From: Candidatus Methanomethylophilaceae archaeon
GTDB taxonomy: Archaea > Thermoplasmatota > Thermoplasmata > Methanomassiliicoccales > Methanomethylophilaceae
DNA: 35,111 bases
Assembly: GCA_050944155.1 (NCBI GenBank)
Contig: JBMNQN010000008.1
Location: 1-35,111 of the forward strand
Reading direction: 5' to 3'
Positions 6,153 through 18,456 of the stretch are shown here, one piece after another (position 1 is the stretch's first letter; every line of letters starts with the position of its first letter). A program made the position numbers and the translations under genes. The notes beneath the pieces were generated by a model. The model saw nothing but the letters and a program-made list of their open reading frames with translations. It was not told the origin of the DNA and searched no databases.

Positions 6153-7238
6153 ATGGTGCGCGGATATTTAGTCCTCGGAGACGGAACTGTGTATGGTGGC
6201 ATTCTTTTCGGCCGCTGCGGTTCCGCCGTCGGAGAGGTTGTTTTCGGAACGGGAATGGGCGGCTATCAGGAAAATATCACCGACCCTTCCTTGAGAGGTC
6301 AGATTTTGGTTTCCGCTTATCCGCTTGTGGGAAACTGCGGAGTTTCGGAAGAATTTTCGCAGTCGGACGGAGTTCACATAAGAGGTTTGGTTGCGAGAGA
6401 TCTGTGCGAAGAACCCACGCACATGTACGGCGGAAAAACTCTGAGTTCGTTTTTGGACGAACACGGAGTGACGGGCATCACGGGAGTGGACACCCGCGAC
6501 ATTATCAGAAAAATAAGAGACGAGGGTTCCGTGCTCGGCGCGATTACCGACGATAAAGTTTCTCCCGAAGTGACCCTGAAAAAGCTGAAAAAGACGGTCT
6601 CTCCCATGGAGACCGACCTTGTGGGCGAAGTGTCCTGCAAAAAAGCGTATAAAATCGGCGGAGGAAAGGAACTCACCGCCGCGGTGATAGACTGCGGAAC
6701 GAAACGCGCGGTGCTGGACGAACTGTCCTCCCGTTTCAACGTTATGGTTTTCCCATACGACACCCCCGCCGACGTCATTATCGAAAGCAGGCCCGACGGC
6801 ATAGTAATCGCCGACGGACCGGGAAACCCTCTGCACGGGAGCATAACGGGAACGGTCACGAAAACGGCCGCGACTCTTTCGTCGCATTTCCCCATGTACG
6901 GCATCTGCATGGGAAGCCAGATAATCGCTTCCGCTCTGGGCGCCGAGATTTACAAAATGAAATCGGGACACCGCGGAAACAATCAGCCGGTAAAATTCGA
7001 AAACCGCGTCTACATAACGTCCCAGAGCCACGGTTTCGCCGTGGATGCTTCTTCCGCCGAAGCCGCGGGATTCGTTGCGGATCAGATAAACATCAACGAC
7101 GGCACCGTAGAGGGGTGCCGCCACAGGGATTTGGATATCATTACGGTGCAGTACCGTCCGGAAGCCCGCCCCGGTCCCGCCGACACCGTTTTCCTGTTCG
7201 ACAGATTCGGCAAGATGATGAAGGAGGCCGAGAGATGA
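6153..7238 (+). CDS. carA: Carbamoyl-phosphate synthase small subunit with catalytic His replaced by Arg
   Basis: GEVVF, GYQENITDPS, DTR, GPG, GICMG and GHRG motifs; QYRPEA instead of Q(F/Y)HPEA; ATGA overlap with carB. Confidence 0.95.
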   Translation: MVRGYLVLGDGTVYGGILFGRCGSAVGEVVFGTGMGGYQENITDPSLRGQILVSAYPLVGNCGVSEEFSQSDGVHIRGLVARDLCEEPTHMYGGKTLSSFLDEHGVTGITGVDTRDIIRKIRDEGSVLGAITDDKVSPEVTLKKLKKTVSPMETDLVGEVSCKKAYKIGGGKELTAAVIDCGTKRAVLDELSSRFNVMVFPYDTPADVIIESRPDGIVIADGPGNPLHGSITGTVTKTAATLSSHFPMYGICMGSQIIASALGAEIYKMKSGHRGNNQPVKFENRVYITSQSHGFAVDASSAEAAGFVADQININDGTVEGCRHRDLDIITVQYRPEARPGPADTVFLFDRFGKMMKEAER

Positions 7239-10200
7239 AGAAGCCTTACAACAAACTGATGGTAATCGGCTCGGGCCCCATAGTGATCGGTCAGGCGGCG
7301 GAATTCGACTTTTCCGGTTCCCAGGCCTGCCGCACTCTCCGCGAAGAGGGATACAAAACCGTTCTGGTAAACTCCAATCCCGCAACGATTCAGACGGACT
7401 CGGAAATGGCTGACAGCGTGTACATAGAACCGCTCAACGCTGAAACCGTGGCCGCAATCATAGAGAAGGAGGGTGTGGACGGCATTCTTTCCGGAATGGG
7501 CGGACAGACCGCTCTGAACATATGTTCCGAACTTTACGACAGCGGAGTTCTGGAAAAGCTCAATTGCGATTTGGTCGGAACGCAGCCTGACGCAATCGCC
7601 ATGTCCGAAGACAGGGAACTGTTCAAGGAGACCATGGAGAGAATCGGAGAACCGGTTCCCCTGAGCTACAGTGTCAGTTCCGTTCCCGACGCCAAAAAAG
7701 CGGCCGAAGAAATCGGAAGATATCCCGTACTCGTGCGTCCCGCATACACCCTCGGAGGTACGGGGGGCGGTATCGCCCACAACGAAGCGGAACTGGAAGA
7801 AATATGCGCCCGCGGTCTCGCCTACTCCCGCATACACCAGGTTCTCATCGAAGAGAGCGTTCTCGGATGGAAAGAGCTGGAATACGAAGTCATGAGGGAC
7901 TCGGACGACAGCTGCATCATCGTCTGCACGATGGAGAATCTGGACCCCATGGGCGTACACACGGGGGAAAGCATAGTCTGTGCTCCTCTGCTCACGGTGT
8001 CCGACCGCGACCATCAGCGCCTCAGAACCGCCGCGATAAAAGTCATACGCTCGCTGGGAATCGAGGGCGGATGCAACGTGCAGTTTGCGTTCAATCCCGA
8101 AAACGGAGATTACCGCCTCATCGAAGTCAACCCCCGCGTGTCCCGTTCTTCGGCTCTTGCTTCGAAAGCCACCGGATACCCCATAGCCAGAGTCGCCACG
8201 AAGATAGCCGTCGGATACAAACTGGACGAAATTCTCAACAGCGTCACCGGAACCACGTACGCCGCTTTCGAACCTTCCGTCGATTATGTTGTCGTAAAAA
8301 TCCCCCGCTGGCCCTTCGACAAGTTCCGCACAGTGGACCGCCATCTGGGGACCCAGATGAAGAGTACCGGGGAAGCAATGTCCATAGGGCGTACCTTCGA
8401 AGAAGCGCTTCTCAAAGGACTCAGATCCCTGGAAATCGGAGTCAAAGGTCTCGACGAACTGGAAATGACCGATGCCGAAATCGAAGAAGAACTGAAAAAC
8501 GTGACGGACAAGCATATTTTCGCGATGGGTCAGGCGCTGAGAAACGGATGGACCGTCGAAAAAATTGCCGATATCTCCAAGTGGGACCGTTATTTCATAA
8601 TCAAACTGAAAAACATCGTAGAGATGGAAAAACGTCTGAAAACCTGCGGAGGAGACCCGAAGGTCGTAAGGGAAGCCAAAAAGATGGGCTTCTCCGACTC
8701 TGCCGTAGCCGAACTCATAGGCATGGACGAAATCGAATTCAGGAACATGCGCAAGAAACAGGGAAACGTATCGGTCTACAAAATGGTGGACACCTGCGCA
8801 GGCGAATTCGAAGCCGCCGCCCCTTACTTCTATTCGACCTACGGACGGACGTCCGAAACTTCCAGGGACGAAAGCAAAAAGAAAGTCGTCATCGTGGGAG
8901 GAGGCCCCATCAGAATAGGGCAGGGAATCGAGTTCGACTACTGTTGCGTACACGGAGTGATGGCACTTCAGGAAGAAGGGGTCGACGCAATCATAATCAA
9001 CAACAATCCGGAGACCGTATCCACGGATTACGACGTTTCCGACCGTCTGTATTTCGAACCTCTGACCCTGGAAGACGTTCTCGACGTCGTGGAGGAAGAA
9101 AATGCCGACGGCGTCATCGTGCAGTTCGGAGGCCAGACCAGCGTAAACCTTGCGGTTGGTTTGGAAAAGGCCCTGGAAGGAACCAAAACTAAAATTCTCG
9201 GTACGAGTCCGGACGGAATGGACGTTGCCGAGGACCGCAGAAGATTCTCCGCGCTTATGGATAAACTGGGTATTCTCCAGCCCCGTTCCGGTACAGGCTA
9301 TTCGTTCGAAGAGGCAAGAAAAATCGCTTCCGAAATAGGATACCCGGTGTTGGTGAGACCGTCGTACGTTCTCGGAGGAAGGGCCATGGAAATCGTCTAC
9401 TCCGAAGACGAACTGAAGACTTACGTGGAAACTGCGGTGAAGGTTTCGAGAAACCATCCGATTCTCATAGATCAGTATCTCACCGAAGCCGTGGAAATAG
9501 ACATAGACGCTCTCTGCGACGGCAAGGACGTTTACATAGGGGGAATGATGGAACACGTGGAATACGCTGGGTGCCACTCCGGCGACGCAACCATGGTAAT
9601 GCCCCCGTTCACGCTGAGCGACGAAATCGTGAAAGGTATGGCGGAGATTACCGAAAAAGTCGCACTGGGTCTTAACATAAAAGGGCTGATGAATCTTCAG
9701 CTCGCGGTGAAAGACAACAAAATTTACATGATCGAAGCGAACCCCCGCGCATCCAGAACCGTACCGTTCATCTCCAAGGCCACGGGAGTTCAGATGGCCA
9801 AAGTCGCCACCAAGATAATGCTCGGAAAGACCCTGAAAGACTTCGGACTTTCGGGATACACCCCCATAGACCACTACGCGGTCAAAGCTTCCGTGTTCCC
9901 GTTCCTGAAGCTGCCCGGCGTGGATTCGATTCTCACGCCCGAGATGAAAAGCACCGGGGAAGTCATGGGCATCGACGAGGATTTCTACACCGCCTGTTAC
10001 AAAGCGCTGATTGCTGCCGGAAACAAACTCCCCATGGAAGGCGGCGTTTACATAACGGTGAACGAACAGGACAAACCCAGGGTGGTAAACGCCGCAAGAG
10101 GGCTTGCGGAGATGGGATTCACGATTTACGCCACCAAAGGCACGTCCACGTACCTGAGGGAACACGGAATCGAAACCACTACAGTGTTCAAACTGGACGA

Positions 10201-17155: not shown

Positions 17156-17704
17156 ATGAGCGGAAGAAGGGCAAAAACCGAACGCAGCACCAGGGAGACC
17201 AAAATCTTCGTCGAGCTCGACATAGACGGGACTGGCATATACGACGCGGAATGCGAAATCCAGTTTATGAAACATATGGTGGAGACTCTTGCGAGATACG
17301 CCTCTTTCGACCTCCGGTTCCGTGCCGGAGGCGACAACGACCACCACATAATCGAAGATTCGGCCATAACTCTCGGAACGGCGTTCAGAAAAGCCGTCGG
17401 AGACGCTCCGATCCAGAGAATGGCAACAGAATTCGTCGCCATGGACGACGCTTTGGCCATGGTTTCTCTGGACATAGTCGACAGACCCTATGCGGACATC
17501 GAATGTCCCGACAGTCTGTACGCCCACTTCTTCAGAAGCTTCGCCATGTCCGCCGGAATCACGTTGCACGTAGCGAAACTGCGCGGTTACGACGAGCACC
17601 ACATAATCGAAGCTTCCTTCAAAGCCCTGGGCAAAGCTCTGTACAAGGCTACGCGTCCCAGGGACACCGAACTCAGTACCAAAGACAGAGCGGAGGTGAG
17701 ATGA
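17156..17704 (+). CDS. hisB: Imidazoleglycerol-phosphate dehydratase (monofunctional)
   Basis: RSTRETKI, DHHIIED, MDDA and EHHIIEASFKA motifs. Confidence 0.95.
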   Translation: MSGRRAKTERSTRETKIFVELDIDGTGIYDAECEIQFMKHMVETLARYASFDLRFRAGGDNDHHIIEDSAITLGTAFRKAVGDAPIQRMATEFVAMDDALAMVSLDIVDRPYADIECPDSLYAHFFRSFAMSAGITLHVAKLRGYDEHHIIEASFKALGKALYKATRPRDTELSTKDRAEVR

Positions 17705-18456
17705 TGCCGGCCAAGAGAATCATTCCGTGTCTCGACATGAAGAACGGAAAAGTCGTCAAAGGCGTAAGATTCGAAGACGTCCGCGATGTGGGCGACCCTC
17801 CCGCCATGGCTTCCGCATACGAAAAGCAGGGGGCGGACGAGATAGCGTTCCTCGATATTTCCGCGTCGCTCGAATCCAGACCGACGATGCTCGATGCGGT
17901 ATCGAAAACCGCCGGAAGCATTTCCGTTCCCCTCTGCGTCGGCGGAGGAATCCGTAACGCGGACGACATGGATGCCGTTCTCAAAGCAGGTGCGGACAAA
18001 GTTTCCGTCAACTCCGCCGCGGTATCCGATCCGTCCATGATATCCGAATGCTCGGAAAGATTCGGCAAACGGCGCGTGATAATAGCCGTGGACGCAAAAA
18101 AGACCGGAAACGGATGGGAAGTGTTCACCCGCGGCGGAACCGAACCGACGGGACTCGATGCGGTAAAATGGTCCGCCGAAGCCGAAAGACTGGGCGCGGG
18201 AGAAATTTTACTGACTTCCATAGACGCGGACGGCGAGAAAAAAGGATACGACATAGAACTCACGGCGGCCGTGGCCGATGCCGTGGACATTCCCGTTATA
18301 GCTTCCGGAGGATGCGGATCTGCGGAACACATCTACGAAGTTCTCACCGAAACGGGTGCCGATGCGGCATTGGCTGCTTCGGTGTTCCACTACGGAGAGC
18401 TGACGGTATCCGGTGTCAAAGACTATCTGAGAAAACGCGGGGTTTCTGTAAGATGA
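17701..18456 (+). CDS. hisF: Imidazole glycerol phosphate synthase cyclase subunit
   Basis: [44 protein letters not shown] and [12 protein letters not shown] overlap with hisB, SD GGAGGTGA. Confidence 0.97.

Follow-up and report, generated by a model that had tools for sequence, protein, structure and literature searches.

The window analysed here is the whole of contig 8 (JBMNQN010000008.1, positions 1 to 35,111) from a Candidatus Methanomethylophilaceae archaeon, whose genome, labelled G000, amounts to 1.04 Mb in 27 contigs and is 92% complete. It carries carA and carB, the genes for carbamoyl-phosphate synthetase (CPS), and a cluster of histidine biosynthesis (his) genes. Together with the rest of the genome, these genes suggest that in each of three two-part enzymes the glutaminase has been inactivated or its gene lost, whereas a conserved synthase (HisF, CarB or GuaAB) is kept. 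The glutaminase genes hisH and guaAA are missing, residues concerned with glutamine are changed in CarA and HisF, the synthases are conserved, the changes are fixed in independent samples, and losses of this kind occur together repeatedly in relatives. The best reading, and in our judgement a likely one, is that HisF, CarAB and GuaAB are ammonia-dependent, where we infer the use of ammonia from sequence. G000 is probably partway in a switch from glutamine- to ammonia-dependent amidotransfer, and many of its relatives seem to have arrived independently at the use of free ammonia.

In what follows, positions without a contig label are those of the window, and features lie on the forward strand unless stated otherwise. 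G-numbers other than G000 are relatives compared here, and X8, X11, X12 and X16 are other metagenome runs with near-identical contigs. The genus comparison includes 16 genomes, the window's among them, of which 7 have hisH and 9 do not. The family comparison includes 174 genomes.

The his genes of the window stand in the order hisG, hisC, hisA, orf134, hisB, hisF, hisIE and a PHP-family gene. In other members of the genus (G014, G001, G006, G013, G012 and G009), and in G018 from another genus, hisH lies between hisC and hisA. In G000 hisC (14810-15856, TIGR01141, 294.9 bits) and hisA (15902-16597, NF010112, 231.4 bits) are 45 bases apart, and the spacer (15857-15901), where hisH would be in relatives, is empty and holds no remnant. 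The hisH profile TIGR01855 gave nothing above 24 bits across the genome (the cut-off is 105.4). A tblastn search of the whole genome with the HisH proteins of nine relatives found no remnant either, just chance-level or PurQ cross-matches. The best of these matches (E 0.005, C3:61036-61239) lies inside a 324-residue open reading frame (ORF) that no glutamine amidotransferase (GATase) profile search listed, and was rejected. Contigs from four independent runs bridge the hisC-hisA junction without hisH. A sequence-only reading of the window had described a his cluster that lacks hisH; the profile, tblastn, synteny and junction results bear this out, and the genome, at 92% completeness, yielded no hisH at another place. 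The HisH half of a heterodimeric HisF-HisH enzyme is thus not found encoded.

HisF itself (17704-18456) is a clear member of its family, with a TIGR00735 score of 344 bits against a cut-off of 294.55 and matches at 1e-76 to the chains from Thermotoga maritima. With the ATG at 17704, its numbering equals that of T. maritima HisF. The catalytic residues D11 and D130 and the gate residues R5, E46, K99 and E167 are all kept. At residue 123, where a HisF-HisH synthase is expected to have Gln, the alignment to T. maritima shows Arg (codon CGG, 18070-18072). The portion of PMC9052757 that deals with this residue describes fQ123 as first recognising, and then stabilising, L-glutamine in the HisH site. 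Residue 123 is Gln in 7/7 of the aligned relatives that have hisH and R, R, D, D and E in the 5/5 aligned that do not. The Arg pointed out from the sequence alone is therefore part of a replacement that tracks hisH loss, at 5/5 versus 0/7. As Gln123 is replaced by differing residues in every aligned hisH-less genome, the site looks like a freed interface rather than one adapted to a new partner.

A genome that is losing genes may simply be on its way to auxotrophy, in which case the his pathway, CPS and GMP synthase would already be relics whose decay began with hisH, guaAA and the CarA triad. The genome is indeed small, and hisA has no canonical ATG. The trp operon is wholly absent from G000, and TrpG with it, so this loss is not specific to a glutaminase. 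The CTP synthase PyrG was found in 0/16 genus genomes, against 9/9 genomes from other families of the order, and G000 gave no match for PdxS. We nevertheless consider auxotrophy unlikely. All the his genes, carB and guaAB are intact ORFs of ordinary conservation, as is hisD (C3:99237-100403), which is present in 16/16 genus genomes, including 9/9 of those without hisH. The his proteins are 71-78% identical to those of sister species, compared with 73-75% for the product of asd, the gene upstream of the cluster. Departures at columns conserved in six other genomes number 2 for hisA, 2 for hisF, 3 for hisB and 5 for hisG, which is no excess. A complete operon lacking just hisH also persists in G002, G008, G015, G016 and G093, across 25-40% protein divergence. 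The HisF catalytic and gate residues are kept, and the samples of several studies show the state to be fixed. From these sequences, the histidine pathway of G000 looks functional.

GMP synthase is, as judged from gene content, the third synthase without its glutaminase in G000. In the sister genome G014, guaAB is directly followed by guaAA, which encodes the glutaminase of the two-subunit enzyme. G000 has kept guaAB, with a product that is 75% identical to GuaAB from G014 and a GMP_synt_C domain (PF00958) of 126.8 bits. In this region (G000:C14:12566-14380) the position of guaAA is occupied by an ORF for an EamA-family transporter, and a search of the genome with PF00117, the class I GATase domain, did not find GuaAA. 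This search matched only CarA, CobQ and PurQ. The contrast with the 7 hisH-containing genomes of the genus is sharp, as each of these has four strong PF00117 matches (TrpG-like, CarA, GuaAA and HisH). In G000 and 7/8 of the other hisH-less members CarA is the only strong match, and G011 (72% complete) has none.

A replacement donor might still serve these synthases. Under this explanation an unrelated glutaminase, the surviving PurQ, or a free glutaminase or asparaginase feeds HisF, GuaAB and CarB, and glutamine remains the real donor. Glutamine synthetase, PurQ and GatD are intact in G000, roughly 8% of the genome is unseen, and many ORFs are unannotated. The evidence on the other side leads us to rate this explanation as quite improbable. 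There are no PF00117 matches in G000 beyond the three named above, and HisF Gln123 is replaced in all five aligned hisH-less genomes by varied residues. Glutamine synthetase is altogether missing from the other hisH-less relatives tested. The one unexplained gene of the operon, orf134, is also present in hisH-containing genomes and looks DNA-binding.

As orf134 (16632-17036, 134 residues) was a candidate for a hidden glutaminase, it deserves a brief description. It has no Pfam or NCBIfam match and was recognised by synteny, as every relative with this stretch of the operon, whether it has hisH or not, carries it between hisA and hisB. Its neighbours in the Atlas are archaeal HTH_3 clusters, which we take as a lead only. 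In view of the lack of any family match, the presence in hisH-containing genomes and the helix-turn-helix neighbours, we rejected a hidden glutaminase. It is probably a helix-turn-helix regulator, maybe of the his operon. In the spacer between hisA and orf134 the X11, X12 and X16 contigs have a one-base deletion at 16621 relative to the window.

The carA gene (6153-7238) encodes a protein that passes the TIGR01368 cut-off (393.3 bits versus 307.35) and has both expected domains, PF00988 at residues 6-131 and PF00117 at residues 178-353. The ATG of carB (7235-10447, NF003671, 1577 bits) overlaps the carA stop codon, and the two are separate ORFs. CarB is 84-85% identical to its counterparts in sister species. 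In the alignment with Escherichia coli CarA, 'FQGHPEASPGP' lies over 'VQYRPEARPGP', so that the catalytic His (E. coli His353) corresponds to Arg335 (codon CGT, 7155-7157). The triad reads Cys252-Arg335-Glu337 in place of Cys-His-Glu; Cys252 (codon TGC, 6906-6908) and the Glu are kept. In E. coli, CarA H353N loses glutamine-dependent activity. Arg335 is unique to G000 among 30 aligned CarA proteins, the other 29 reading QYHPE or QHHPE. A second change, Ser292 (codon AGC, 7026-7028), falls on an Asn that is present in 29/29 aligned relatives, in the motif 'SQNHG' ('AQNHG' in E. coli). Because the catalytic His is Arg335, the protein, a CarA by descent, should probably not be given the name 'glutamine-hydrolysing'.

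Contigs from runs X11, X12 and X16, which belong to three other studies, cover CarA codon 335 and leave it unchanged. All of the differences in these contigs were placed away from this codon (3/3 in X11, 2/2 in X12 and 18/18 in X16), from which it follows that the Arg codon is real and fixed rather than an assembly error. The X8 contig has 1 difference, whose position is not listed, and is not counted for this codon. The sequence-only reading had noticed the Arg and allowed for CAT or CAC at 7155 in other samples. The E. coli alignment, the 30-protein comparison and the three runs agree with the former, and the independent contigs carry CGT.

Could CarA with Arg335 still be a working glutaminase, or the Arg a neutral oddity, which would leave hisH and guaAA as the only real losses? 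In favour are the retention of Cys252 and Glu337, an acceleration that is only mild over the whole of CarA, and the availability of glutamine. We think this very unlikely: the His is kept in 29/29 aligned relatives and in 119 of the best 150 cluster representatives (described below), in G016, G087 and G099 a change from His to Arg is again found, accompanied by loss of the Cys, and Asn292, invariant in 29 relatives, has changed as well. A metagenome-assembly artefact, in which hisH would be hidden by a gap in binning and the Arg codon would be a base error, has 27 contigs and 92% completeness in its favour and is extremely improbable, given that hisH is missing inside a contiguous syntenic operon, that contigs of four other runs bridge the junction and that three confirm the codon.

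Across the family hisH is lacking in 35/174 genomes, and in 10/90 of those that are at least 90% complete, including all 8 of one genus. CarA could be read in 25/35 hisH-less genomes and in 22 hisH-containing ones; in the remaining hisH-less genomes eight gave no match and two a partial one only. The triad is broken in 16/25 of the former and 0/22 of the latter (intact in 9 and 22, respectively). In broken triads the Cys has become Gly, Ser or Ala, and the His has become Arg, Tyr or Ile. The same His to Arg change as in G000 is found in G016, G087 and G099/G100. Separately, G052 (0.8 Mb, 79% complete, 6% contamination) carries carA-carB twice, on different contigs, and in each copy the Cys has become Ser and the His is replaced.

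Other amidotransferases of hisH-less relatives are affected too. Glutamine synthetase gave no match in nine other hisH-less genomes of a 40-genome sample, including G002, which is 99% complete in two contigs. PurQ was looked for in five hisH-less relatives: it is absent from G002 and G015, and its triad is broken in G008, G016 and G024. The guaAB gene is kept in 5/5 hisH-less relatives searched. GatD and PurF still look catalytically intact in hisH-less relatives that lack glutamine synthetase. The idea of a glutamine-free cell for these relatives is therefore weakened, as the asparaginase motifs of GatD are kept in 10/10 aligned sequences and the PurF Cys is also kept. The hisH-less genomes in which no glutamine synthetase match was seen are G002, G003, G004, G007, G008, G010, G011, G015, G016 and G024.

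How often these losses happened depends in part on the tree. On a CarB tree of 45 genomes the state of the triad changes at least 8 times and the presence of hisH at least 9 times. A careful tree of eight concatenated proteins places G000 as sister to the rest of the genus (99/98), under which its loss of hisH would be independent of that in G002 and G008. An approximately unbiased (AU) test rejects a clade of G000, G008 and G002 (p 0.011), a group that was named after the tree had been seen. A quick CarB tree (440 columns) disagrees with the eight-protein tree and puts G000 inside a hisH-less clade with support of 89. The independence of hisH loss across genera is not in doubt.

Broken CarA triads are also found beyond the family. 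Among 1.8 billion cluster representatives, the best 150 matches to G000 CarA include 119 that keep Cys-His-Glu, 1 that is partial and 30 that are broken. Since 28/30 of the broken-triad representatives are less than 50% identical to any CarA of the family, these 28 clusters come from other lineages. The named members with a broken triad include two cultured anaerobic Bacillota, Thermosyntropha lipolytica DSM 11003 and Desulfonispora thiosulfatigenes DSM 11270, both of which are labelled 'glutamine-hydrolyzing'.

We give about even chances to a wider claim, that the whole family of methylotrophic methanogens repeatedly dismantles its class I glutaminase modules, with G000 caught midway, and that a CPS resembling the vertebrate mitochondrial CPS1 is widespread in prokaryotes. 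Across lineages the dismantling might run through PdxT, PyrG, HisH, GuaAA and TrpG, and then the CarA triad, PurQ and glutamine synthetase. Its end point would be a cell in which the synthesis of histidine, arginine and pyrimidines, purines, GMP and pyridoxal 5'-phosphate (PLP) runs on ammonia from its own energy metabolism.

Several observations weigh against ammonia dependence or limit its reach. G000 encodes a type III glutamine synthetase in which each of the three Pfam domains is present and which is 76% identical to that of G014. Its PurQ retains Cys, His and Glu. The N-terminal Cys of PurF, the Cys of CobQ and of a CbiA-like protein, and the asparaginase motifs of GatD are likewise present. 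Since these six look intact, the cell still makes and uses glutamine and is not compelled to depend on ammonia; G000 is an intermediate, not an end state. The decay of class I glutaminases proposed from the sequence alone accordingly holds in part: HisH and GuaAA are gone and the CarA triad is broken, while PurQ, CobQ and CbiA keep their Cys and, like PurF, look intact; TrpG and PyrG are absent. The check for glnA and amt suggested there showed a normal type III glutamine synthetase in G000, and the ammonium transporter Amt was not found.

The CarA protein as a whole is just mildly relaxed. Its unique departures at conserved columns number 9 in G000 and 10 in the hisH-containing G018, and any excess in G000 is modest. 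We compared carA and carB by identity tables and by departures at conserved columns instead of dN/dS, which is unsuitable because protein identity to the nearest relatives is just 66% and synonymous sites are saturated. The hisA start is a further concern. The ATG seen in relatives (ATG(ATG)) is missing from the region 15845-15930, where the frame is open from the TGA stop of hisC. The first canonical start is a GTG at 15902, inside the conserved 'PAVD' strand, and its use would cost about 5 residues of the first strand. The region is identical in the independent X8 contig. Loss of the ATG could signal incipient decay of the operon; a near-cognate ATA or ATT start is conceivable.

The remaining cautions concern absence and sampling. 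At 92% completeness, absences outside the two syntenic deletion sites are unproven. In 3/9 of the hisH-less genomes with an intact triad the assembly is incomplete (G044 84%, G107 68% and G180 91%), and hisH may be unassembled. G044, for example, has a CarB end branch of almost zero next to the hisH-containing G021. Some hisH-less calls are probably assembly gaps. Finally, a paired test of hisH loss against a dead triad gave a median p of 0.125 from 7 starred pairs, too few for significance.

On balance we still favour ammonia dependence. The sequence-only reading had ammonia feeding directly into carbamoyl-phosphate and histidine synthesis, and the CarA triad, HisF residue 123, the loss of guaAA and the conservation of the his genes support this. 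HisF, CarB and GMP synthase accept NH4+ in vitro. We propose that in the cell HisF, CarB and GuaAB would take free cytoplasmic NH3. It may reach HisF through the barrel gate, which would now be uncovered, and CarB either directly or via the dead CarA. The dead CarA may stay on as a structural subunit, as does the inactive domain of vertebrate CPS1. The selective reason could be the ATP of glutamine synthetase that is saved, or just drift once ammonia is plentiful.

The NH3 may be supplied by methanogenesis from monomethylamine and by an ammonia-rich environment, with no Amt transporter involved. The genome encodes mcrA, and the last third of the monomethylamine methyltransferase gene mtmB lies at a contig edge (C25:1-477). 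A full mtmB with one in-frame TAG is present in 13/15 of the other genus members. The trimethylamine methyltransferase MttB was not found in G000. DNA nearly identical to that of G000 is present in 20 runs, belonging to 13 studies, from landfills, bioreactors, anaerobic digesters, biogas fermenters and sediments; two of the runs possibly represent the source sample. Habitats of the landfill and digester type are ammonium-rich, and methanogenesis from monomethylamine releases one ammonia per methane. The section of Borrel et al. 2014 (PMC4153887) on this subject names habitat and monomethylamine as sources of ammonia, and a GlnN-type synthetase, for the order. The guess, made from the window alone, of an ammonia-rich habitat or a methylamine-using methanogen thus agrees with mcrA, the mtmB fragment, the failure to find Amt and the origin of the landfill, digester and bioreactor runs.

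The other genes of the window can be described briefly. Between carB and asd lies a hydantoinase/oxoprolinase-like gene on the reverse strand (10441-12438). It is 63-64% identical to its counterparts in the hisH-containing clade, has a weak match in G010 and is absent at the corresponding place in G002 and G008. It is followed by asd (12871-13935) and by hisG in its long form with a C-terminal domain (13944-14807, TIGR00070 and TIGR03455). Downstream of orf134 are hisB for imidazoleglycerol-phosphate dehydratase (17156-17704, ATG at 17156, NF002111 and PF00475) and, after hisF, hisIE (18453-19055, NF002747, 230 bits) and a PHP-family candidate for histidinol-phosphate phosphatase (19052-19699, NF004981, 293.9 bits). 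MTAP and then hypF follow after 19699, also on the forward strand. A cluster of genes for the cobamide lower ligand and for salvage (CobT, CobY, CobS, CbiS, CbiB and CobD) occupies 23729-30066, in keeping with a corrinoid-dependent methyl-reducing methanogen. Apart from cobamide salvage, the remaining genes are archaeal housekeeping genes (pelota and Trm5b).

Glutamine amidotransferases are the standard example of ammonia channelling, in which a glutaminase is tied to its synthase and free ammonia is not needed. In ammonia-rich habitats or metabolisms, evolution has apparently undone this coupling repeatedly, and for several enzymes within the same cells. The family therefore supplies naturally occurring intermediate stages with which the purpose of the glutaminase partner can be investigated. 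Nitrogen economy may also be linked to the very small amount of energy that methyl-reducing methanogens gain in digesters, landfills and guts. The results also advise caution with automatic annotation: names such as 'glutamine-hydrolysing', and calls of histidine auxotrophy because hisH is missing, can be wrong here. If the wider claim is true, an ammonia-dependent CPS of the CPS1 kind is widespread in prokaryotes and routinely mislabelled 'glutamine-hydrolysing'. In the literature covered, which included few subscription journals and no supplements, we found no natural histidine pathway without HisH, no prokaryotic CarA with a dead triad and no such trend in the Methanomassiliicoccales.

Each of the parts has a known counterpart. 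HisF alone works with ammonium salts in vitro. Compared with the HisF-HisH enzyme of T. maritima, G000 HisF shares the family, the catalytic residues and the gate, and it differs in having no HisH and in carrying Arg in place of fQ123. Compared with the two-subunit archaeal GMP synthase, G000 keeps GuaAB, the ATP-pyrophosphatase subunit, and lacks GuaAA, with the EamA-family ORF in its place. PLP synthase is likewise a pair of a synthase, PdxS, and a class I glutaminase, PdxT. PdxS is present in 15/16 genus genomes and PdxT was found in 0/16, so the PLP synthase of the genus appears to run without a glutaminase, hisH-containing species included. G000, the one exception, differs in having no match for PdxS either. 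The NAD synthetase family is a precedent for one amidating family that occurs naturally with or without a glutaminase module, as the relevant part of PMC3376133 describes ammonia-using and glutamine-using forms. That is a long-standing split between lineages, whereas the loss seen here is recent, repeated and spread over several enzymes.

The closest parallel is vertebrate mitochondrial CPS1. According to the portion of PMC4655335 that covers the CPS types, the glutaminase-like domain of CPS1 is retained in inactive form and the enzyme draws its ammonia from the surroundings, and all types other than CPS1 use glutamine. CPS1 and G000 CarA are alike in having a glutaminase-like module with an incomplete triad beside the synthetase, and the CPS1 chains 5dot and 6uel are among the sequence matches of G000 CarA. 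They are unlike in that CPS1 is one fused polypeptide, has Ser in place of the Cys and needs N-acetylglutamate, whereas in G000 carA and carB are separate and the His has become Arg. By analogy, G000 CarAB may at most work like CPS1, and is not a member of it. It would provide a prokaryotic parallel to the origin of the vertebrate enzyme. All the parts come from families already described, for which ammonia use is an established side activity; their convergent uncoupling, in several enzymes at once, is well supported.

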